DNA of 64,000 bases from Escherichia phage DCP80: sequence record PQ671644.1; one strand, given 5' to 3'. The position numbers were made by a program, and so were the translations under genes. Shown here in pieces: positions 1-61,850 of the stretch (its first letter is position 1; each line of letters starts with the position of its first letter). Below the pieces are notes generated by a model. That model saw nothing but the letters and a program-made list of their open reading frames with translations, was not told the DNA's origin and did no database searches.

Positions 1-1255
1 AGATGTTCATTGCCACTAACTTCTCTGCATAATCGCCATATATTTCACTCGCCTGGAGTTCCTCAATCAACTTCTTACGAGGTTTCCCCTGGATAACAAC
101 CTTACCGTCAATCACTTCTTTAATAAAGAAGACTTTTGCCCGGGCCAGTTTAAATGCTGCTTCAGTTTCTTTAATCTTACTGTCAATTCGCACTTGAACA
201 TAAGTCTTACGGACATCAACGAAATCGCGAATCAGGTCAAGCGTGTTGGTGTATTCAGCCAGCTTGCCTTTGTGATTAAGCACTGTTAAGTTTTGGGAGA
301 GCTTCTCAATCAGACCAAAGTCTTTCATGATTTTCTCATGATTTTCTTCTTCAGTACCATCCAGCTTGTATTCTTTGCGGAATTTAATCTTAAACCCAAA
401 ACCATGCTCGCCGCAGTTATCTTTCCAGGTGATAAAACCTTTCTCTTCCAGCGGGTCCAGGATTTTACTTGTATACTTTTCTAGGTTCCATTGGACCGGG
501 ATTTCAGTAATTTCCATTTGGGTCCTGGAAGTCATTTTGTACGTGCCATGAAGCTCATACTTACCAGGCTCTTCCAGCTCAACCACTTCACCACGGAATT
601 CTGGATATTTTACTTTCGGCGCAACCGGCTCACGACCTTCCACGATAGCTTTAACAGCTTCCTTGACGTCCTGGAACGAATGAGGAAGAATATCAGTAGC
701 GAAGCCAACAGCAATCCCAGAAGTGGCGTTAAGTAATACAGTAGGAATAACAGGAAGATAAAAAGCAGGAGGCTTATGTTCTTCATCAGGATGGACCGGA
801 GCATATTCTGTATCCTTAAACAAGTTATAAAAGTTCTTTGAAACCCGTGCGAATACATAACGAGCTGATGATGCTTCTGGCACCATTCTGGAACCAAAGT
901 TGCCTTGTCCATCAAACATGGGGTATTCATTTTTATATGTTGCGACCAGACCAGAAGTTGCTTCTTCCGCTGATGCTTCACCATGGTGATAACCATAATC
1001 AGCTACGCCGCCGGCGATGGATGCAACTTTATGGAATTTATTCTTATCACCGCGCGCCAGGTCTAATGCTCTCGCCATAACAAATCTGTGAACTGGTTTA
1101 AAACCATCAATCATGTTTGGGATTGCGCGACCTTCCACAGTGTAGATAGCATATGATAATGCTTCCACATCAATAATGTCTTTTAGACTGCGTGGGTTAA
1201 GGGTCCCCATTGAATCACTGAACTGTTTGGACATCATACTTAAAACGTCAGACAT
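1..1255 (-). CDS. 52: DNA topoisomerase II medium subunit gp52 (GyrA-like), C-terminal part lost at window edge
   Basis: Minus-strand frame from ATG at 1255-1253 to position 1 with no stop; absent from ORF track because no stop lies in the window. Translation MSDVLSMMSKQFSD...AIPNMIDGFKPVHRFV...IAGGVADYGYHHGE...YAPVHPDEEHKPPAFYLP matches T4 gp52 as recalled. Confidence 0.85.
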   Translation of the reverse strand, partial: MSDVLSMMSKQFSDSMGTLNPRSLKDIIDVEALSYAIYTVEGRAIPNMIDGFKPVHRFVMARALDLARGDKNKFHKVASIAGGVADYGYHHGEASAEEATSGLVATYKNEYPMFDGQGNFGSRMVPEASSARYVFARVSKNFYNLFKDTEYAPVHPDEEHKPPAFYLPVIPTVLLNATSGIAVGFATDILPHSFQDVKEAVKAIVEGREPVAPKVKYPEFRGEVVELEEPGKYELHGTYKMTSRTQMEITEIPVQWNLEKYTSKILDPLEEKGFITWKDNCGEHGFGFKIKFRKEYKLDGTEEENHEKIMKDFGLIEKLSQNLTVLNHKGKLAEYTNTLDLIRDFVDVRKTYVQVRIDSKIKETEAAFKLARAKVFFIKEVIDGKVVIQGKPRKKLIEELQASEIYGDYAEKLVAMNI

Positions 1256-1396
1256 ATATCACCTTACCAGATTAACGAATGTACTGCCATTATAGCATCA
1301 GAAATAAAAAGCACAACCTGCACTAATGCAAATACAACTCCATAATATAGCGCTACCAATAAGGCAGCAAGGGCTAACGAGTAGCCCAGGATTTTC

Positions 1397-1579
1397 TTAA
1401 TCATTTTTAATCATCTTAAGTAAACCGACAAAAGTAGAAAGAATCCAGCCAATAAACAGAAAACTTAAGAATAGCGGACCAGGGGTCCAGACTCCTAAAA
1501 AGAAGCAGACTGAACAAACCACGGCAATAATAAGTTCGATAAAAGCCAGAATAATCATATTTTCCTCAAGGGCGTCCAA
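1397..1579 (-). CDS. small hydrophobic membrane protein
   Basis: 60-aa ORF, strongly hydrophobic, in the position of the small membrane ORFs upstream of gene 52 in T4-like phages. Confidence 0.35.
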
Positions 1580-1647
1580 AGACGCCAGTTAATTTAAGAT
1601 TATGGCGATGCCATTGCATCACATGTTCATTATGGAAATTACTCATA

Positions 1648-2097
1648 TTAATAACTCTGCAGAATGAATTTAAAGTTATCAGCAAGCATGCGATTCATTT
1701 CTGAAAGGGTCTGGCAATCAGAACTATGTGAGCGAGTGAACGCCATCGCAATTTGACCTTTACCATAACCAGTTGTCAGGGGTTTCATTTTAGAAACTGG
1801 AACAAACAGGACTTCATAGATAACACCATTGTTCGCCATTGTGCGCGACAGTTGCGAACGCTGTTTGCGGATGTGACTTAATACAGTGTCAAACCCTTGT
1901 TGTGAACGTTGGTTACCAACGTAAAAACGTGCAGCAACAATACGTGATTCGCCTTCACCCTTAACTACAAAATAAAAACCTGGTTGAGTGATAGCTTCTT
2001 TAGTTGGACGCCCTGCAACATAATTACCATTATGGATATAAGCAACAGTGGTAGCGCCAGCATTCAGTACGTCACGACGGGTCATGTAAGTATTCAT
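1648..2097 (-). CDS. ndd: nucleoid disruption protein Ndd
   Basis: 149 aa; PGFYFVV...[14 protein letters not shown]...[11 protein letters not shown]...[20 protein letters not shown]...[12 protein letters not shown] closely matches recalled T4 Ndd; synteny between rIIB region and gene 52. Confidence 0.7.
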
Positions 2098-2140
2098 ATT
2101 AATTTCCTCAGTAAGTTAAAGTTTTGTGCTCCAGTGGGGT

Positions 2141-2170
2141 CATTATACTCTGACCCCAAGAGTATGTACA
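2141..2170 (-). promoter_or_regulatory. early-type promoter with stem-loop around the -10 box
   Basis: Minus-strand TGTACA, 17-nt spacer, TATAAT; GGGTCA/TGACCC inverted repeat flanks the -10 box; lies upstream of ndd. Confidence 0.4.
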
Positions 2171-2515
2171 CTATTTTTGAAGTTGTTCTAAAATAAATCC
2201 GCTGGTGTAAAGGCTTGCATTATACAGGCGGTCAAGAGACAACGAATCCAATCCATAAGCTTCGCGAATTGCATTGATAGCACTCTCATAACTTGTATAA
2301 TAAACATCGCGATAATCGCGGTCCATAGTCATGCGGAACTTAATAAATTTGTAGAAACCAGTTTCAGGGTCCTGATAGAATGCAAATTCTGCAGACATCA
2401 AATTTTTAAGGTTAACAGCTTTTGTACCACCTGAATAACTTAAATCAAATGCTTCTGATACGCTAATCTGTTTAAAGAACATAATGTTGCGATTACCAAA
2501 AAATACTTTAGACAT
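2171..2515 (-). CDS. hypothetical protein
   Basis: 114-aa ORF, same strand and tight spacing as neighbours. Confidence 0.5.
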   Translation of the reverse strand: MSKVFFGNRNIMFFKQISVSEAFDLSYSGGTKAVNLKNLMSAEFAFYQDPETGFYKFIKFRMTMDRDYRDVYYTSYESAINAIREAYGLDSLSLDRLYNASLYTSGFILEQLQK

Positions 2516-2530
2516 AATATTTTCCTCAGC

Positions 2531-2776
2531 TTATTCAGGGTCTACTGCGCCATCCCACAAGTCAACTTCTTCTGATGATTCCATCAGTTCATCAACTGTG
2601 AAGCACTCAGTATTATTTTCAATTGCAAAACGCTTCTGATAAAAAGGATAATCCAAACAGTTTTCAGTGCGCACTGGACGCTCGCTGTTATCCATTAAAG
2701 GCGAAATGCGAATCAGTTGTTGACCATTACCCAGGACAAATTTTTCACCAACTGCAACGTCTTTAAAAAGTTTCAT
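2531..2776 (-). CDS. hypothetical protein
   Basis: 81-aa ORF with ATGA stop/start overlap to upstream ORF. Confidence 0.45.
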   Translation of the reverse strand: MKLFKDVAVGEKFVLGNGQQLIRISPLMDNSERPVRTENCLDYPFYQKRFAIENNTECFTVDELMESSEEVDLWDGAVDPE

Positions 2777-2979
2777 TGCTTAGCTCCATTCCAAATTACA
2801 TCAACAACAGACTTCAAACCATTATCCTGGATTTGTGTGAATACTTCAGCAGCAATCCAGACCTGGAAACCAATCATTGCAATGGCACCAATGAAAATCA
2901 GGATAATCATTGCCACAATAAACTTGAACATAAAGTCAAAGCGACGATTGGATTTCTGAAAGTGTGAATTGTAATTCAT
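2773..2979 (-). CDS. small membrane protein
   Basis: Likely start MNYNSHF at 2979 preceded by GAGGA; hydrophobic core; homolog in second copy at 17644-17790. Confidence 0.45.
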   Translation of the reverse strand: MNYNSHFQKSNRRFDFMFKFIVAMIILIFIGAIAMIGFQVWIAAEVFTQIQDNGLKSVVDVIWNGAKQ

Positions 2980-3251
2980 AATATTATCCTCAAAAGAAAT
3001 AGTTAAAGTAAACACGTACATGGTCAATCATAAAAATAATTGGGAAAATGCTCAGGACAACAAACAATACAAACATGTTCCAAATGGCTTTAAGTAACTT
3101 TTTCATAATCATCTCCAGTAGTTGATAGGTTCATTATACTACAACCACCGGAGATGTACACTCTTTTATGCAAGTTTCATTAATAATAAACTAAAACAAA
3201 CGCAAATTACTGGAATACACAACATCCAGATAAGACACCAGGTTTTGCTGC

Positions 3252-3518
3252 TCAAAATATCACCTCTTTTATTTCAATCAGACCCCTGTGCAATGCGGTG
3301 CGAAGGTCATAAAGAATATCTATGCCATCAACATTATCCAGTTTTCCATCAATAAGCTTTTTTAAATCATGCTTTGATGCAACTAGCGGGCGAAGAAATT
3401 TACATTCAGAAAGAGACAATTCTGTAGTAATATCATCACCATCACCTGACGCATCATACATGGCAGCAACAACCATACCTGTAACTTTGTGCTTGGCGTA
3501 ATATAATTTAATATCCAT
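3252..3518 (-). CDS. hypothetical protein, YYxKHKVTG family
   Basis: 88 aa from MDIKLYYAKHKVTG with GGAAAACAGA RBS; track ORF extends upstream in frame; homolog in second copy at 16949-17215. Confidence 0.5.
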   Translation of the reverse strand: MDIKLYYAKHKVTGMVVAAMYDASGDGDDITTELSLSECKFLRPLVASKHDLKKLIDGKLDNVDGIDILYDLRTALHRGLIEIKEVIF

Positions 3519-3528
3519 TCTGTTTTCC

Positions 3529-3684
3529 TCACGCATAACGATTGTATGTATTTTTACGACAAGCGTAAAATTGACGCTCAGTAACTGCAAAACTTTTTCC
3601 GCGTTGTTGCATTAATTTAAAAAATTCAGTAATATCGCCATTAACTTCAAGGTATAAAGTCATTGCATATTGAGCAGGTTTCAT
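3529..3684 (-). CDS. small hypothetical protein (copy-1-specific)
   Basis: 51-aa ORF MKPAQYAMTLYLEVNGD... translated by eye; below track threshold; the second copy carries a different gene here. Confidence 0.3.
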   Translation of the reverse strand: MKPAQYAMTLYLEVNGDITEFFKLMQQRGKSFAVTERQFYACRKNTYNRYA

Positions 3685-3704
3685 TTTATTCTCCAGTCTG
3701 TTTG

Positions 3705-3760
3705 GTAACTCAGTATGGAATCATTATGCACTGACTCCATACTGATGTACACTACTTTTT
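3705..3760 (-). promoter_or_regulatory. early promoter / stem-loop cassette (PeSL-like)
   Basis: Minus strand aaaaGTAGTGTACA, 17 nt, CATAATG, with CAGTATGGA/TCCATACTG inverted repeat flanking the -10; repeated elsewhere in the window. Confidence 0.45.
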
Positions 3761-3762
3761 AA

Positions 3763-4038
3763 TTAATTGTGCATTTGTTCTTTAACTTCTTTATATGCGC
3801 CAACTGCATTCACGACCCCAGTAAAATCTGCAGTCCCACGATAGAGATAGAAAGCAATTTCAGTCAGGTGGTAGACTTCAAATTCTGAAAGATAAACGAT
3901 AACGTCATAATATGCAACTTGACCCTGGACTTCGTTGAATGCCACATCAAAAATTTCATGGGTTGGAAAATTGATGTTGTTGTTTTTGAGTGCTTGGATA
4001 AGAATTTGTTTGATGTTGTGAGTAGTAACGTGTTCCAT
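3763..4038 (-). CDS. hypothetical protein
   Basis: Probable start MEHVTTHN at 4038 with AAGGA RBS; track ORF 3763-4128 extends into upstream gene. Confidence 0.45.
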   Translation of the reverse strand: MEHVTTHNIKQILIQALKNNNINFPTHEIFDVAFNEVQGQVAYYDVIVYLSEFEVYHLTEIAFYLYRGTADFTGVVNAVGAYKEVKEQMHN

Positions 4039-4085
4039 GATAATGTCCTCATTTGTTGGTATGAGGACATTATTACACGGTTGGT

Positions 4086-4679
4086 TCAGCTTGTAAACCG
4101 GTGATAGGGAAATTTTTCTTCTGAACAAGAACGGAGGTACCAGCCATCCCCTTGTGACTTCTGCACAAGACCAGACTCAGGAACGAAAGCACCAGGCCCA
4201 GCAAGGAATTTTGGTTTAAATCTATAACCTTTGAGAGTCTCTTTTACATCGAGCATAATCATAAGGTCAGCAAGCTTGTGCTGCATAAAAGGACCAAGAT
4301 TAATCCCGTAACCATGCGGATAATCGCCCTGGTGGCCAGTGTGTACGGATATCCATTTGGAACCAGACTGGTGGGTCTTGACTTCGATTCTTACCCCTTC
4401 CTTCGAAACTACATCAAATGCAAAGGAATAAGGATTATCGTAATCTTCGTCGCCGCCACATAAAAAACCAGAAGTCCATTTAGCAATAGCTTGTTCAGCC
4501 ATTGTAGCAACCATGCATCTTTGCATGACTTGCTCACGGTCCTGACCTGGGTCTTTACGCAATGAATACCGGGTAGTGTCTACAATCTTCTGCAGGGATT
4601 CGGGGTTTAAGTCTTCCTTTGTATAAAGAAAGGAGGGCATCTTTTTCAGATGCTCCCAGGTTTTACTCTTCTGAATCAT
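4086..4679 (-). CDS. hypothetical protein (197 aa) in the denB/ndd-region position
   Basis: Long ORF, same-strand synteny; identity with a named T4 protein not established. Confidence 0.55.
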   Translation of the reverse strand: MIQKSKTWEHLKKMPSFLYTKEDLNPESLQKIVDTTRYSLRKDPGQDREQVMQRCMVATMAEQAIAKWTSGFLCGGDEDYDNPYSFAFDVVSKEGVRIEVKTHQSGSKWISVHTGHQGDYPHGYGINLGPFMQHKLADLMIMLDVKETLKGYRFKPKFLAGPGAFVPESGLVQKSQGDGWYLRSCSEEKFPYHRFTS

Positions 4680-4932
4680 TTACGACCTCATCGATACCGA
4701 CGATTCCACGGATGTGAAGCTCACCATAATACAAACGGTCATTAGCATCAAATGTATCAGAATCCGGGTCAGGGAATTCCCCAACAACTACTTCATCACA
4801 TTCCAACCAACCATAGTGAACATCACCTTCATGCTTGATGAGCTTACCGCAGTAAACTATTCCTGCATAATGATGACCCCGGAGATTTGAAACTTTGATG
4901 TCACGGTCTGACACATTGAAATGCTTAATCAT
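4663..4932 (-). CDS. hypothetical protein
   Basis: 89-aa ORF, overlapping stop/start with neighbours. Confidence 0.5.
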   Translation of the reverse strand: MIKHFNVSDRDIKVSNLRGHHYAGIVYCGKLIKHEGDVHYGWLECDEVVVGEFPDPDSDTFDANDRLYYGELHIRGIVGIDEVVNDSEE

Positions 4933-4935
4933 AAT

Positions 4936-5133
4936 TTATTCACCAAAATAAGAGATACGAGTTGCCAGTACATGAGCATAAGCGCCCATCGCGTCTAACT
5001 GTGCAATCAAAAGACCTTGTTGACGAGCATCGAGAGTTTCAAAAACACCGCCCTTAATAAATTCTTCAAGAGCATTGATTTTCAAAACCAGCTGGTCATG
5101 TTCTTCAACTACACGTGCTTGGAAACCTAACAT
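4936..5133 (-). CDS. hypothetical protein
   Basis: 65-aa ORF with GAGG RBS; homolog in second copy at 15231-15440. Confidence 0.5.
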   Translation of the reverse strand: MLGFQARVVEEHDQLVLKINALEEFIKGGVFETLDARQQGLLIAQLDAMGAYAHVLATRISYFGE

Positions 5134-5146
5134 AAAGCCTCATTAG

Positions 5147-5160
5147 GGGCCGAAGCCCCG
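5147..5160 (-). promoter_or_regulatory. C(UUCG)G tetraloop RNA hairpin downstream of rIIB
   Basis: GGGGC-TTCG-GCCCC on the coding strand; no U-run, so a structural or processing element rather than a clear terminator. Confidence 0.4.
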
Positions 5161-5166
5161 ATTAAT

Positions 5167-6141
5167 TTAGAATTGTTCAGTTACATCATCAAGGACCAGG
5201 TAACCACAGACCCTCATCTTACTATCACCATAATCCACCGGGATACTTACAACATCACGCGGGTGAACTTTACAGGATACGATGCGTCCATCACCATGAC
5301 CAAAACCACTTCCAATATAACCTTTAGAGCAAACATGCAACCCAGTTGAACAAGTTTGTTCGTCATTATCGTTCACACGAGAGCGCGGCATTTTAACATA
5401 TTGACCAGGGCTGTTGTCGAATGTATTTGAGTGACAATCTTTGTAAGTTGCACGAACCATTTTCCATGCGATGAAATGACCGTCTTCGGTGATTTCGATA
5501 TCGTTCGCAACCAGGAAGTCAAACAAACGCTGTACGGCTTTCTCACTCGGGTTCTCAAGGAGATTCTCAAGGAACGGCAGATAGAATTCAAAGTCTTCGC
5601 CATTTTGCATTGAATCAATGATACGAGTAACCAGGCCAGAGCGTAGTTCAATTCCCTGATAGAACAGACTACCACCTTCAATACGCACATCGCCTTTCAC
5701 ATATTTTTGTACTGCAGCTTTGATTGAGATAAACTCGATAGCATCATCAAAACGAGATTCAATCAATGCCTGAATAATATCATTAAAGTGTTTATGGTCT
5801 TTTGTGGCGTTCCAGACTGTGCGACCTTCAGTGATGGAAACGAATTTGCTTGATGCGTTCCATACGATTTCTGGGCGGCTACCGCCGATTGTATCTTCAA
5901 CGACCGGAACTTCAACCATTACTGTCACCGGAGCATTAATCGCCACACCAACAGCTGCTTTCAGTGATGCAGAAATGGTTTTAGATAATTTTGATTCTTT
6001 ATCATTTTTCAAAACACGGCGAATGGTGTCAACCGATACACCGAAATTATCTGCTAGTTCCTGTTGGGTATAATTACCAGTTTTATAAAGAGAAACTACC
6101 TGGTTTTGGTCAAATTTGGATAAAGCTTTAATATTAAACAT
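5167..6141 (-). CDS. rIIB: rIIB protein
   Basis: 324 aa; GNYTQQELA...VSVDTIRRVLKN...DVRIEGGSLFYQGIELRSGLV...FYLPFLENLLENPS...LFDFLVANDIEITEDG...QYVKMPRSRVNDNDEQTCSTGLHVCSKGYIGSGFGHGDGRIVSCKVHPRDVVSIPVDY matches recalled T4 rIIB; immediately downstream of rIIA. Confidence 0.85.
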   Translation of the reverse strand: MFNIKALSKFDQNQVVSLYKTGNYTQQELADNFGVSVDTIRRVLKNDKESKLSKTISASLKAAVGVAINAPVTVMVEVPVVEDTIGGSRPEIVWNASSKFVSITEGRTVWNATKDHKHFNDIIQALIESRFDDAIEFISIKAAVQKYVKGDVRIEGGSLFYQGIELRSGLVTRIIDSMQNGEDFEFYLPFLENLLENPSEKAVQRLFDFLVANDIEITEDGHFIAWKMVRATYKDCHSNTFDNSPGQYVKMPRSRVNDNDEQTCSTGLHVCSKGYIGSGFGHGDGRIVSCKVHPRDVVSIPVDYGDSKMRVCGYLVLDDVTEQF

Positions 6142-6142
6142 A

Positions 6143-8377
6143 TTATTCCTTATTGGCCGCTTCCACGGCCTTCATGATTTGAGCAACGTTCTGTACTTGT
6201 TCAGTTGACATAGCGTTACGGTTATATAAAAAGTGTGAAACAATCGGGTGATTCTTTTCAAATTCAAAAACCATTTTATCGCTTGTTACCGAAGCGTTTT
6301 TGGTCAGGTCGTCATAAATCTTATTACAAAGGACCAGCGTTTCCTGCATGGTCTTATCAACCGTTCCACTGTTATATGCGTTATAAGCAAAGAACTTATT
6401 GAACTGCATTAGTTCGGCATAGTCAGTATTCACATCTTTCTGAACATCTTTTGCATAAAAATACTTGAACATAAAATTCAGTTCTGCATATTCAGACAGG
6501 ATAGGAATATAATAACGCGAACGGCTTGAAGCGGCAATGTACTGGTCTGCATCAACCGCATCAATCAATTCCACATAACGATTGACTGCAGCTTCAATCA
6601 GACAATCGCACTGCGCCAGCTTGGTAACCTTTTTCTGAAGCTGTGGACGAATAACACAGAATTCATTGATTTCCAACAGATTCGCCAGTTTGCACAATGT
6701 CTGGGTCCCGAAGGTCGTGGTGCCATATTCTTGATTCAACGGGGAAATGCTACTGCGGTTAATGAATACAGCATAACCATCGATTTCCTCTGCATCAGCT
6801 GCACATGTAAATTCTTCAACAGACTGCCAGCGACCATTGGTTTTAGTCCAACGAATCAATGATGGAGTCTTTGACTTAATGCGCGCTTTCGGGTCAGCAA
6901 CCGGAATCCAGTCTTTTACAAGGGCAGTCAGTTCAGACGTACGATAGATATTAACCGTATCGCCTTCAAATCGTTCCTGGAGTTGAACCATCAACCGTGT
7001 CTGAATTTCGCTGGTCGGGTCAACAAACAGTAAACTACTACCCTGACGAGTCGGGACTTTACCAGATGCAATAAGCTTTTTAGCTTTTGCGCTGGTATCA
7101 TACAACATTGAACTGATACCACGAATCATCGCAATTCGCCCTTTAACATCGTCAATAACAATGTTCAAGGTATCATTCTGAATACCAAACATGCTCGTCA
7201 GACTTGCCGTGTTCGAGCTTGAGCTTGAGTTGCGCAGACGTTTCAGACGAGTGTCACGATAGATATCATAGACAACCCCGGCATTAATAAGGTCTTTGTC
7301 CAGCTCGAACATTTCGTACATCTGGTTAAAGGTCAATTGTGATTTCGTAAATTTCGTTTCAGCATTACGAGCTTTCAGAAAATTACGAGCTTCATAATTC
7401 AGATTCTGCAATTCGCGATATGTATGGCGAAGACATTCTGATTCCTGCCATTTCTTACAATCGTCTTCCATGACTTTCTTATCAAGGGCTTCAATACGTT
7501 CAACGATATTTGCGACCGTACGTTTGTCCAGTGATAACGCTTCGCGAGAAGGTGCAATATCCAACGAACCCATCGGGAACTTAATAAAGACAACATCATT
7601 TTTGGCAGTCATCCAGGTTTTCTTGGTGTAACCATCACCAATCGGATAAACAATTCCGCCATAAATTGCATAAAGTCCATAACGTTCTGGACTGCTATAA
7701 TTAATACGCGCTGGAGCATAGTAATCATCAAATTCCGGGAAGTATTCAATTTCGCCAGCGCCTTGCACTTCAGCCAGCCCAGCAAATGGACGCATGATAT
7801 ACGCAATCTCGTAGCGGAACTTACCAAAATCATTACTATCAACCGGGACAACAACTTCAATCCCTGTGCGGTCACCAGGTTTCATTGGTTCACTAAAGGT
7901 TGGCTTAATCTGTGGACCATCGCCGTCCATATAAGCGACATATCCATTAACTTGACCATCATGATATGAAATCAGGCTAAACGTCTCGGTATAACTGAAC
8001 GGAGATTTAGAACCCAGACCAAAGCCACCAATAAAATCGTTGGATTCGGCCTTGGATGATGCAAAGAAACTGTTATACAGACCTGGAGTATTTTCATCAC
8101 CACGAATCTGGAAATCACTCATACCCGGACCAAAGTCACGACATACAAAACGTGGGTCCAGTTCACCAGGAGCTTGCACAATGAATTTATCCTGACATCC
8201 ATTGAGCATATGAGCATCAATCATATTGGTAATCAGCTCACGAACAACCGCGCGCACCTTGTTTGTATAAAGGTCGCTGGTCAGAATCTTAAACACCTTT
8301 GGAGATGCCTGGATTGTGAATGCTGATGCCTTGGCACCATTACCAAGGATTGTTTCCTTTTCAGTTTCTAAAATCAT
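6143..8377 (-). CDS. rIIA: rIIA protein
   Basis: 744 aa; N-terminus ETEKETILGNG...SPKVFKILTSDLYTNKVRAVVRELITNMIDAH...DPRFVCRDFGPGMSDF...FIGGFGLGSKSPFSYT matches recalled T4 rIIA. Confidence 0.9.
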   Translation of the reverse strand: MILETEKETILGNGAKASAFTIQASPKVFKILTSDLYTNKVRAVVRELITNMIDAHMLNGCQDKFIVQAPGELDPRFVCRDFGPGMSDFQIRGDENTPGLYNSFFASSKAESNDFIGGFGLGSKSPFSYTETFSLISYHDGQVNGYVAYMDGDGPQIKPTFSEPMKPGDRTGIEVVVPVDSNDFGKFRYEIAYIMRPFAGLAEVQGAGEIEYFPEFDDYYAPARINYSSPERYGLYAIYGGIVYPIGDGYTKKTWMTAKNDVVFIKFPMGSLDIAPSREALSLDKRTVANIVERIEALDKKVMEDDCKKWQESECLRHTYRELQNLNYEARNFLKARNAETKFTKSQLTFNQMYEMFELDKDLINAGVVYDIYRDTRLKRLRNSSSSSNTASLTSMFGIQNDTLNIVIDDVKGRIAMIRGISSMLYDTSAKAKKLIASGKVPTRQGSSLLFVDPTSEIQTRLMVQLQERFEGDTVNIYRTSELTALVKDWIPVADPKARIKSKTPSLIRWTKTNGRWQSVEEFTCAADAEEIDGYAVFINRSSISPLNQEYGTTTFGTQTLCKLANLLEINEFCVIRPQLQKKVTKLAQCDCLIEAAVNRYVELIDAVDADQYIAASSRSRYYIPILSEYAELNFMFKYFYAKDVQKDVNTDYAELMQFNKFFAYNAYNSGTVDKTMQETLVLCNKIYDDLTKNASVTSDKMVFEFEKNHPIVSHFLYNRNAMSTEQVQNVAQIMKAVEAANKE

Positions 8378-8384
8378 GTTTTTC

Positions 8385-8594
8385 TCACTTTATGTTACGT
8401 TTGATTAATTCTGCAACTTCAAGAAGTTCATCCTTTGTTGCGGTGTCTGAAGCTATTTTAATACGGATTTCTTTGAAGCGTTCTTTAAACTCTTCAGCTT
8501 CTCTTATATCAAAAAAACGTTGGATAACACGGTATTCTTTATGGATAGCCTTATCAAACAGTTCCATATTAACTTTGAAGTTCGTCATTTCCAA
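8385..8594 (-). CDS. hypothetical protein
   Basis: 69-aa ORF between gene 39 region and rIIA; conserved in second copy. Confidence 0.5.
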   Translation of the reverse strand: MEMTNFKVNMELFDKAIHKEYRVIQRFFDIREAEEFKERFKEIRIKIASDTATKDELLEVAELIKRNIK

Positions 8595-8853
8595 TCTCCT
8601 GTAATATTTTTCTCATACTACGCATGGTAGCTTTATGTTCTTGGTCATGGTATATCAATGCAAGGAGTGCTTCAATTCGCTCCTCAGGGACCTTCTGGCC
8701 AGCCTTAATTCTCATGGCTGATGTTCTTACAGCTAACAAGTAACTTCGCTTCCTGTCGTTATCTGGGAGCCCCTGCACTTTCCTCAGACCTGCTTCCATA
8801 ATACACCGTGCGACATTTTGCAGATTAACTAAACTTCCGTCAGACATAATCAT
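8569..8853 (-). CDS. hypothetical protein
   Basis: 94-aa ORF; conserved in second copy at 11065-11349. Confidence 0.5.
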   Translation of the reverse strand: MIMSDGSLVNLQNVARCIMEAGLRKVQGLPDNDRKRSYLLAVRTSAMRIKAGQKVPEERIEALLALIYHDQEHKATMRSMRKILQEIGNDELQS

Positions 8854-8900
8854 ATTTTCACCTCAAAGACATCTTAACACACTTTTTGTGGCTTGTACAT

Positions 8901-8926
8901 AATAAAAAGGTCTCCCGAAGGAGACC
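8901..8926 (-). terminator. rho-independent terminator with UUCG tetraloop
   Basis: Minus strand GGTCTCC-TTCG-GGAGACC followed by TTTTTATT. Confidence 0.6.
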
Positions 8927-8936
8927 AAATTTTATT

Positions 8937-8993
8937 CTACTTTATAGACTTGACCATACGCCATGAAAGTTTCACCTTCCCAGGTTTCGCACG
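8937..8993 (-). CDS. 3' end of small ORF downstream of gene 39 (cut by gap)
   Basis: Encodes ...CETWEGETFMAYGQVYKVE, identical to the end of the ORF at 10842-10986. Confidence 0.4.
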   Translation of the reverse strand, partial: RAKPGKVKLSWRMVKSIK

Positions 8994-16337: not shown

Positions 16338-16613
16338 ATGGAACACGTTACTACTCACAACATCAAACAAATTCTTATCCAAGCACTCAAAAACAACAAC
16401 ATCAATTTTCCAACCCATGAAATTTTTGATGTGGTATTCAACGAAGTCCAGGGTCAAGTTGCATATTATGACGTTATCGTTTATCTTTCAGAATTTGAAG
16501 TCTACCATCTGACTGAAATTGCTTTCTATCTCTATCGTGGGACTGCAGATTTTACTGGGGTCGTGAATGCAGTTGGCGCATATAAAGAAGTTAAAGAGCA
16601 AATGCACAATTAA
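16338..16613 (+). CDS. hypothetical protein
   Basis: Probable start MEHVTTHN after AAGGA RBS; homolog of 3763-4038. Confidence 0.45.
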   Translation: MEHVTTHNIKQILIQALKNNNINFPTHEIFDVVFNEVQGQVAYYDVIVYLSEFEVYHLTEIAFYLYRGTADFTGVVNAVGAYKEVKEQMHN

Positions 16614-16672
16614 TTAAAAAGTAGTGTACATCAGTATGGAGTCAGTGCATAATGATTCCATACTGAGTTACC
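16612..16672 (+). promoter_or_regulatory. early promoter / stem-loop cassette (PeSL-like)
   Basis: TGTACA 16625-16630, 17-nt spacer, CATAAT 16648-16653; CAGTATGGA 16632-16640 pairs with TCCATACTG 16657-16665. Confidence 0.45.
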
Positions 16673-16688
16673 AACCTGGAGAAACAAA

Positions 16689-16952
16689 ATGAAATTTAAA
16701 TTTTATTATATTAAGCATAAAGTTACTGGGGAGTTTATTGCATTTACAACTTCATCCAATAATCAAGGTGATACTTTTACTTCATTGTTCTTATCTAGAT
16801 GGGATTCAGACCAGCCTTATTTGTCCACAAAAGAGCATCTTCAACGTATGGCGAAGGGCGAGCTAAACGATTCTTGGGATAATATTGTGAATAATTGTAT
16901 CAAGAAAGCTATCCAAGAAAATCAACTTGAAATCATTGAGGTGGAATTGTGA
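16689..16952 (+). CDS. hypothetical protein, YYxKHKVTG family paralog (copy-2-specific)
   Basis: 87 aa MKFKFYYIKHKVTG...; tandem paralog of the next gene; not present at the equivalent site in copy 1. Confidence 0.5.
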   Translation: MKFKFYYIKHKVTGEFIAFTTSSNNQGDTFTSLFLSRWDSDQPYLSTKEHLQRMAKGELNDSWDNIVNNCIKKAIQENQLEIIEVEL

Positions 16953-17215
16953 ATATTAAATTATATTACGCCAAGCACAAAGTTACAGGTATGGTTGTTG
17001 CTGCTATGTATGACGCGTCAGGCGATGGTGATGATGTTATTACAGAGTTATCTCTTTCTGATTGTAAATTTCTTCGCCCGTTGGTTGCATCAAAGCGTGA
17101 TTTAAAAAAGCTTATTGATGGTAAGCTGGACAATATTGATGGTATAGATATTTTTTATGACCTCCGCGTCGCATTGTCTGATGGATTGATTGAAATCAAA
17201 GAGGTGATATTTTGA
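16949..17215 (+). CDS. hypothetical protein, YYxKHKVTG family
   Basis: 88 aa, homolog of 3252-3518. Confidence 0.5.
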   Translation: MNIKLYYAKHKVTGMVVAAMYDASGDGDDVITELSLSDCKFLRPLVASKRDLKKLIDGKLDNIDGIDIFYDLRVALSDGLIEIKEVIF

Positions 17216-17304
17216 GCAGCAAAACCTGGTGTCTTATCTGGATGTTGTGTATCCCAGTAATTTGCGTTTGTTTTAGTTTATTATTAATGAAACTTGCATA
17301 AAGA

Positions 17305-17332
17305 GTGTACATCTCCGGTGGTTGTAGTATAA
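17305..17332 (+). promoter_or_regulatory. early-type promoter
   Basis: GTGTACAT, 17-nt spacer, TATAAT; mirror of the copy-1 element near 3130-3160. Confidence 0.4.
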
Positions 17333-17486
17333 TGAACCTATCAACTACTGGAGATGATTATGAAAAAGTTACTTAAAGCCATTTGGAACATGTTTATACT
17401 GTTTGTTGTCCTGAGCATTTTCCCAATTGTTTTTATGATTGACCATGTACGTGTTTACTTTAACTATTTCTTTTGAGGATAATACT

Positions 17487-17633
17487 ATGATAGTTATGAA
17501 AAAGTTTAAAGAATATCATTGCTATGAATGTGGCAAAAAGATTGATTCTATTCATTCATTAAACGTCTTTTCTTTTGATAATTTAAACTATGCACACATT
17601 TGGTGCCTTCGTGGAATGACTAAATTTAACTGA
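17487..17633 (+). CDS. small zinc-ribbon-like protein (copy-2-specific cassette)
   Basis: 48 aa MIVMKKFKEYHCYECGKK...HIWC (CxxC...HxxC spacing); flanked by duplicated GAGGATAATA(C/T)TATG junction. Confidence 0.4.
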   Translation: MIVMKKFKEYHCYECGKKIDSIHSLNVFSFDNLNYAHIWCLRGMTKFN

Positions 17634-17643
17634 GGATAATATT

Positions 17644-17790
17644 ATGAATTACAATTCACACTTTCAGAAATCCAATCGCCGCTTTGACTTTATGTTCAAG
17701 TTTATTGTGGCAATGATTATCCTGATTTTCATTGGTGCCATTGCAATGATTGGTTTCCAGGTCTGGATTGCTGCTGAAGTATTCACACAA
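17644..17790 (+). CDS. small membrane protein, 3' end lost in gap
   Basis: MNYNSHFQKSNRRFDFMFKF..., homolog of 2773-2979. Confidence 0.45.
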
Positions 17791-32173: not shown

Positions 32174-32250
32174 TTTTATTTCCTCAGTTGTTATCAGTAG
32201 TTGATGGAACCATTATGCCTTAGCTCAAGGGACTTGTACACTACTTTTTG

Positions 32251-61797: not shown

Positions 61798-61850
61798 TGT
61801 ACAACCAGATGGTCATAAGACATAATGATTCCATACTGAGTTACCAAATA
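61798..61850 (+). promoter_or_regulatory. early promoter / stem-loop cassette (PeSL-like)
   Basis: TGTACA 61798-61803, 17-nt spacer, CATAAT 61821-61826, then conserved GATTCCATACTGAGTTACCAA leader. Confidence 0.45.

Follow-up and report, generated by a model that had tools for sequence, protein, structure and literature searches.

Which genes lie behind one shared promoter in two closely related phage genomes, and how did the contents of that position come to differ? This question was raised by a 64-kb window, the whole stretch of DNA that was analysed, in which the first-pass annotation had described a cassette swap between two haplotypes. One copy of the region was said to encode two adjacent paralogs with a YYxKHKVTG motif, and the other only the second of them, with an unrelated 51-aa ORF at the equivalent site. 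The genes are as described: copy 2 has the two adjacent homologs, A and B, copy 1 has B and the 51-aa ORF, and no BLASTP alignment was obtained between A and the 51-aa protein at E<=100 (Table 1). We classified the slot by the ORFs located between the leader and the next promoter. The locus was compared in detail in the two copies of the window and in 13 isolate genomes, and in one metagenome contig in addition.

Table 1. Coordinates of the slot, its flanks and other features of the window.
Feature	Position	Strand	Remarks
91-aa gene, copy 2, left flank	16338..16613	+	conserved; like VR7 gp288; phrog_17571
91-aa gene, copy 1, left flank	3763..4038	-	conserved
Promoter P1, leader and SD, copy 2	16612..16688	+	early sigma70-type, predicted
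P1, hairpin, leader and SD, copy 1	3685..3762	-	same as copy 2 up to ...GAGTTACCAA
Slot gene A, copy 2, 87 aa	16689..16952	+	MKFKFYYIKHKVTG...; homolog of PST ORF268 and RB69 ORF270c
Slot gene, copy 1, 51 aa	3529..3684	-	MKPAQYAMTLYLEVNGD...YNRYA; small rare family; followed by B
Gene B, copy 2, 88 aa	16949..17215	+	MNIKLYYAKHKVTG...; like VR7 gp287 and JS98 gp262
Gene B, copy 1, 88 aa	3252..3518	-	MDIKLYYAKHKVTG...; ATG start at 3518; own SD (TGAGGAAAACAGAATG)
29-aa hydrophobic ORF, copy 2	17212..17301	+	like ndd.6 and JS98 orf261
Promoter P2, right end of slot operon	17306..17356	+	predicted; copy at 3160 (-)
Promoter family, examples	61798, 62387, 17306	+	
Promoter family, examples	43944, 41064, 37705, 36629, 32240, 27033, 2170	-	
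HNH-AP2 homing-endonuclease ORF, 163 aa	14747-15238	+	phrog_374, E=8e-59; copy 2 only
Locus of the 140-bp indel	17474-17647	+	140-bp segment (17491-17630) with a 45-aa Cys-rich ORF, phrog_25572; copy 2 only
N runs (start)	8994, 17791, 24743, 30887, 36511, 41760, 47031, 52286, 57005, 61506		

The window consists of 11 contigs with N runs between them and is not one molecule. An all-against-all blastn search within the window resulted in three contig pairs (1/2, 3/8, and 4/7) with 95-97% identity, which indicates that the assembly mixes two closely related phage genomes. Contig 1 (1-8993), read on its minus strand, aligns collinearly with contig 2 (9041-17790), read on its plus strand, at ~96-97% identity. 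In a megablast search against phage genomes, both copies had 93-98% identity to Gaprivervirus, the VR7/SP18 group of T4-like coliphages, and the region order in both is rIIA-rIIB-denB-...-ndd. The presence of two related copies was confirmed; however, judged from these alignments, the 'haplotypes' are two co-assembled Gaprivervirus strains on separate contigs, ~96% identical to each other.

The blastn comparison of copy 1 with copy 2 revealed three indels: the HNH-AP2 ORF, for which copy 1 has 41 bp only at the equivalent site (5134-5174), the slot, and a 140-bp segment, whose locus (17474-17647) corresponds to 2976-2992 (-) in copy 1. The 45-aa ORF in the latter segment has a zinc-ribbon-like CxxC...HxxC motif. 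Two 17-nt direct repeats, TGAGGATAATACTATGA and TGAGGATAATATTATGA (TGAGGATAATAyTATGA), border this indel, and each of them forms a stop-SD-start block; by its sequence this is a clean signature of short-homology insertion or deletion. At the slot, homology breaks at 16695-16949 of copy 2 versus 3518-3678 of copy 1, exactly at gene boundaries. The contrast is deterministic, read directly from the two sequences, and chance does not come into question.

The left flank containing the 91-aa gene is ~97% identical between the copies, and the alignment through the end of this gene, the promoter, and the leader contained one mismatch. Both arrangements were expected directly behind the same promoter/stem-loop cassette, and this was observed: promoter, hairpin, and leader are identical up to ...CTGAGTTACCAA, and homology resumes at the second codon of B. 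The promoter scan predicted for P1 a -35 box TGTACA at 16625-16630, a 17-nt spacer, and a -10 box CATAAT at 16648-16653; the 91-aa gene stops ~12 nt ahead of the -35. An AT-rich block, TTAATTAAAAAGTA, precedes P1, and the leader, CCATACTGAGTTACCAA, harbors an SD (GGAG) at ~16678-16681. At its 3' side, the element ends in copy 2 with the SD-start sequence CTGGAGAAACAAAATG and in copy 1 with CTGGAGAATAAAATG. The -10 of P1 is straddled by a 14-bp inverted repeat (16631-16644 / 16653-16666), the only strong hairpin of the element, with the 5' arm in the promoter spacer, most of the -10 in the loop, and the 3' arm behind the -10; as RNA the hairpin was estimated at -24.3 kcal/mol (z=-4.7). The hairpin could form only in read-through transcripts from upstream. 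No T-run follows it, and no terminator-like site was found at P1. The P1 element was conserved in all related phages whose leader was compared.

The early-promoter pattern had 19 matches in the window. At least ten early promoters share AAAAAGTAGTGTACA...ATAATGATTCCATACTGAGTTAC, and the extended consensus, including ~20 nt of leader, is AAAAAGTAGTGTACA-N17-(c/t)ATAATGAttCCATACTGAGTTAC, accompanied by similar SD-ATG blocks. In several members of this family, the -10 sits in the loop of an inverted repeat. Two promoters of the window, at 61798 and at 32240 (-), harbor a T-run directly upstream, unlike P1. In the hairpin of P2 (-25.8 kcal/mol, z=-6.2), the loop contains the -10 and the 3' arm the SD. 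With the SD in this arm, read-through could mask the ribosome-binding site, whereas transcripts starting at P2 itself would not.

The homology of A and B was assessed at the protein and DNA levels. BLASTP aligned the two proteins at 34% identity (E=9e-14), and the profile search of the YYxKHKVTG family assigned both, over the full length, to phrog_2390, with E=1.4e-37 for A (residues 1-87/87) and E=5.9e-35 for B. In contrast, blastn provided no alignment between the two genes, and the repeat search detected DNA likeness only at the ends, with 73% over the first ~52 nt and 81% over the last 26 nt. Beyond the three phages sharing A, the nearest relatives of A are Tequatrovirus-type proteins (56-67% identity); in T6, FriedrichMiescher, and PST, the A-type gene is the single copy of the family and is located after denB. 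B grouped with the single-copy gene of JS98 (Dhakavirus), and the neighbour-joining tree of the family separated an A/Tequatrovirus clade from a B/JS98 clade. According to this tree, A is the Tequatrovirus-type lineage and B the Dhakavirus/Gaprivervirus-type lineage of one family. Since A and B fall into separate old clades, the A+B tandem joins two old lineages, and a recent tandem duplication was ruled out by the phylogeny together with the absence of a blastn alignment. The earlier term tandem paralog is correct for the homology, but not for a local duplication. Most simply, the tandem would have arisen by recombination between phages of different genera.

In copy 2, the GTG start of B overlaps the stop of A as GTGA, which suggests translational coupling. 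By tblastn, neither A nor the 51-aa gene had a second copy in the window. AlphaFold2 predicted a beta3-alpha-beta-alpha-beta fold for A, with a pLDDT of 92.5. The GIY-YIG nuclease fold was considered for A and B due to the YY...G hairpin motif and the beta-beta-beta-alpha order; it was rejected, as there was no significant sequence or structural match with conserved catalytic residues. The B allele of VR7 (1590-1856 of the VR7 locus) has KHKVQVWVIAAMY where every other allele has KHKVTGMVVAAMY, a deviation that points to sequencing errors in the VR7 record or to a short, compensated frameshift.

The 51-aa ORF had been proposed to be a different gene and not a degraded remnant of the paralog. 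The profile-profile comparison by hhalign between the 51-aa family and the A/B family resulted in a probability of 0.4%, and AlphaFold2 predicted a three-helix bundle (pLDDT 88.5), which differs from the fold predicted for A. These results, in combination with BLASTP, ruled out an origin as a degraded A. The MAFFT alignment of the DNA showed a weak in-frame resemblance near the 5' ends of A and the 51-aa ORF. The four alleles compared (copy 1, UPEC01, MN01, and RZ) differ pairwise at 2-6 of 156 nt without any amino-acid change; all of the ~7 variable sites are synonymous, whereas the surrounding DNA differs by ~4%.

Homologs of the 51-aa protein were then listed. By tblastn, an identical or 98%-identical protein was encoded in 15 Gaprivervirus records. 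Across unrelated phages the homologs are 53-55% identical over the full length, and those at 53% come from ~47-kb phages (Deseoctovirus C1 ORF69, S192, and EcoIv28_Lewi). The 51-aa ORF matched no PHROG. An exhaustive HMMER search against 1.84 billion representative proteins resulted in four true clusters of the family, with 51-53 aa and conserved MKP..YA and YNRYA ends, and two spurious repeat proteins; no member of the A/B family was among the matches. A 52-aa homolog (55% identity) was located at 4001-4159 of the T4-like contig L026, between imm and spackle, with its own predicted early promoter of the T4 type (GTTTACA-N17-TACTAT) and a ATCAACTAATGGAGAACAAAAATG leader. This location indicates that one small gene occupies different hyperplastic loci in different T4-like phages. 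Taken together, the comparisons show the 51-aa ORF to be a real independent gene, unrelated to A and B and, as judged from its allelic differences, under purifying selection.

Among the 13 isolates and the two copies, the slot has at least five states. B alone was found in VR7, VR20, and DK-13; 51+B in copy 1, UPEC01, MN01, and RZ; 68+B in VR26 and P896; and A+B in copy 2, CJ20, 212, and fDHCT2. In SP18 and P479, an A-type gene, designated A', stands alone, with the 29-aa ORF directly after it and B absent. Therefore, both arrangements of the proposed two-state swap are real and intact in complete isolates, and the presence of alternative unrelated ORFs at the same promoter-proximal position in two related genomes was supported, but the number of states exceeds two. 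At the same locus in other genera, T6 and FriedrichMiescher have only A, JS98 has only B, and PST has a 68+A arrangement (ORF269+ORF268). The 68-aa cassette is 94% identical to PST ORF269 in protein and ~85% in DNA, and ~116 other records contain a gene 90-95% identical to the 68-aa protein; the matches listed include T2, RB3, and similar Tequatrovirus-type phages. The 29-aa ORF, whose start overlaps the stop of B, was present in the related phages examined, and an equivalent CDS is annotated in UPEC01 and JS98. It is predicted to belong to the early operon of the slot.

Neighbour-joining trees were built for the left flank (denB and the 91-aa gene) and for B, and on both the slot states were scattered and not clustered. 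CJ20 (A+B), for instance, pairs with copy 1 (51+B) on the left-flank tree. The 51-aa gene and A are each linked to both Gaprivervirus-type and JS98-type alleles of B, and in the metagenome contig L024 the 51-aa gene adjoins the same B allele that stands beside A in copy 2. The slot content thus varies independently of both flanks, as is characteristic of repeated recombination. The pattern scan of IMG/VR detected two contigs, the scan of a single metagenome detected one (L024), and the protein-cluster homolog searches for the slot families resulted in only 2 and 8 clusters.

The junctions were compared among the states. On the left, all states have the promoter, the leader, and the SD-start block CTGGAGAA(A/T)(A/C)AAAATG, in a shorter form (CTGGAGAAAAAATG) in VR7 and VR20, and divergence starts at or just past the ATG. 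On the right, the junction depends on the type of cassette. For both the 51- and the 68-aa cassette, the terminal sequence is ...TGAGGAAAA(C/T)A(A/G)AATGGATAT, which matches the native B leader in JS98 (...CATGAGAGGAAAACAAAATGGATATC). In the A+B join, the ...GAATTGTGA of A is fused to the ATATTAAA of B, with ATGGAT (Met-Asp) changed to GTGAAT (Met-Asn), and the same stop/start overlap of A also links A' to the 29-aa ORF in SP18. In the B-only phages, a P1-type SD is fused directly to the ATG of B, as expected for the product of a deletion between two SD-start blocks. Between denB and ndd.6, T4 (NC_000866) retains an 8-codon in-frame remnant of A (MKIAEIEL, then a stop). The endpoints of this deletion coincide with an 8-nt repeat, AAATGAAA, present in T6, and the remnant is explicable as a deletion between the two repeats.

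We propose, with a probability of roughly 0.75, that the slot varies by presence/absence and replacement of genes at a promoter-proximal position in the hyperplastic rIIB-denB-ndd region of Gaprivervirus, with arrangements created by joins and then spread by homologous recombination. The conserved early sigma70-type promoter P1, with its leader and SD, would drive a short operon with a variable first cistron (nothing, the 51-aa gene, the 68-aa gene, or the 87-aa A), followed by B and the 29-aa hydrophobic peptide. As inferred from the sequence, the host RNA polymerase would transcribe these genes from P1 just after infection, and translation of B would start at its own SD where the 51-aa gene precedes it and would be coupled, through the GTGA overlap, to that of A in the A+B state. 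The process may have two layers. In the first, rare short-homology or illegitimate joins at translation-initiation regions would have made each arrangement; the left join site would be the shared ...CTGGAGAAnnAAAATG, and the right one the native SD of B, TGAGGAAAACAnAATG, for the 51- and 68-aa cassettes and the GTGA stop/start overlap for A. In the second, general homologous recombination of the T4 type would have spread the arrangements among co-infecting phages, across genera, through the flanks, namely the 91-aa gene and promoter on the left and B on the right. The crossover points are deduced from extant sequences, and the right-junction microhomologies, of 2-15 nt, could be coincidence filtered by selection. 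The slot alternatives are compatible with either insertion or deletion as the direction of events.

Other origins were weighed against this two-layer explanation. A chimeric join made during assembly or scaffolding comes to mind because N runs join the contigs of the window, which stem from at least two strains. However, A+B (CJ20, 212, and fDHCT2) and 51+B (UPEC01, MN01, RZ, and others) occur base for base in complete independent isolate genomes with all ORFs intact, so the chance of an artefact is negligible. It is also highly implausible that a local tandem duplication of B gave rise to A, leaving the 51-aa ORF as the remainder of a decayed copy. The two genes are indeed adjacent homologs of equal length with similar 5' and 3' ends, but A is much closer to the Tequatrovirus-type proteins than to B, and blastn did not align the pair. 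Moreover, the 51-aa family has conserved homologs of its own in siphophage-sized genomes and at another T4-like locus, and the synonymous-only allele differences, the hhalign result, and the different predicted fold all contradict decay. A further candidate is the HNH-AP2 gene of copy 2, ~1.4 kb upstream, a clear indel between the copies, which might cleave genomes lacking it and co-convert the slot. Free-standing endonucleases of T4 (SegF and SegG) are known to co-convert flanking markers. Such co-conversion is also mentioned, in general terms, in an account of T4-type phages (PMC4122927). Nevertheless, contig L024 has the HNH gene with 51+B, CJ20 has A+B with no HNH ORF in the annotated interval, and UPEC01 and copy 1 have neither HNH nor A. 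In addition, the DNA between the HNH gene and the slot retains ~97% homology, with no tract boundary visible at the slot. As the presence of HNH is uncorrelated with the slot state, we consider conversion by this gene very unlikely as the main cause.

Two further explanations give the promoter element itself an active role. In T4-type phages, modular shuffling in hyperplastic regions has been associated with promoter-early stem-loop (PeSL) elements (Arbiol et al. 2010, PMC2839356; Comeau et al. 2014, PMC4122927), and in the strict form of that model a cassette is excised and integrated as a small circle via two flanking PeSLs. This very locus illustrates PeSL-mediated exchange in Fig. 6A of PMC4122927, and experiments with RB49 yielded crossovers located between the -10 and the ATG (PMC2839356). 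Here, the promoter/leader is likewise a repeated element, with at least ten similar ones in the window, and P1 (16625) and P2 (17306) bracket the operon. However, no promoter or PeSL lies between the slot ORF and B; a P1xP2 circle would thus carry the slot ORF, B, and the 29-aa ORF together, whereas the copies differ in this operon in the slot ORF only. The canonical terminator hairpin upstream of the -35 is also absent, the inverted repeat straddles the -10 instead, and the right-hand junctions are unlike between cassette types. The mini-circle fits less well than joins followed by flank recombination, and we regard it as unlikely. More speculatively, the position behind P1 may be a dedicated 'expression slot' for promoterless ORFs that would hop, integron-like but without an integrase, between loci and T-even genera. 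The promoter hairpin and the linkers GGAGAAnAAAATG, TGAGGAAAACAnAATG, and TGAGGATAATAyTATGA would then be preferred recombination substrates, and the hairpin could be the target of a structure-specific phage nuclease, e.g. endonuclease VII. General recombination followed by selection for intact gene boundaries explains the same observations equally well, and a dedicated slot seems to us a doubtful, rather improbable addition.

For the function of these genes, Pfam, NCBIfam, and PHROGs provided no assignment for A, B, the 51-aa ORF, or the 91-aa gene. The GenBank record of EAWsc9 labels the 91-aa gene as 'MafI family immunity protein' and B as 'COesterase domain-containing protein'; neither label was reproduced by Pfam/NCBIfam. 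A literature search for names of the A/B family returned nothing relevant. The slot proteins are predicted to be early-expressed accessory factors, and a role in host takeover or counter-defence would be a guess from position and timing only. Early accessory genes are often suspected of host-range tuning or counter-defence, which makes the slot a convenient natural panel for small orphan proteins, comprising the 87/88-aa alpha/beta family, the 51-aa three-helix protein, and the 68-aa protein. It is a well-resolved example of early accessory-gene variation in T4-like phages, with at least five fillings, exchange between genera, and junctions at translation-initiation sites.

Known systems resemble the slot to different degrees. 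Integron cassettes are likewise promoterless ORFs in series behind a resident promoter, with contents that vary among close relatives. Nevertheless, the likeness is an analogy only, because the slot has no integrase, attI, or attC, and its junctions are SD/start microhomologies. The polymorphism of the internal-protein locus, in the non-essential early regions of T-even phages (Repoila et al. 1994, as cited in PMC4122927), also presents alternative small genes at one locus in close relatives, although that locus is a different one. The short-homology deletions of T4 (Mosig; Singer et al. 1982, as cited in PMC2839356) are similar in that recombination needs only short patches of homology, and they concern other loci.

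The closest counterpart is PeSL shuffling. The exchange drawn for this locus in PMC4122927 is between T4 ndd.4/.5 and PST ORF268/269; of the two PST genes, ORF268 is a member of the A family and ORF269 the 68-aa cassette. In both systems, small ORFs without annotated function are inserted, deleted, or replaced beside a conserved early promoter-leader-SD unit in the rIIB-denB-ndd region, with crossovers near the SD/ATG (PMC2839356). Four PeSL characters were found at the slot, namely the promoter with an AT-rich block, the SD with ATG, the repetition, and the hyperplastic location, whereas two others, the hairpin position and the flanking elements on both sides, were not. What is exchanged here is one promoterless ORF, whose right boundary is the start region of the following gene instead of a second PeSL, and the stem-loop straddles the -10, while that of a PeSL is a terminator upstream of the -35. 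The genus Gaprivervirus and the 51-aa cassette were not included in the PeSL studies. The slot swap leaves the current understanding unchanged: the phenomenon and the hot spot were both known before, the slot adds one more instance, and GenBank already contains isolates with either arrangement.
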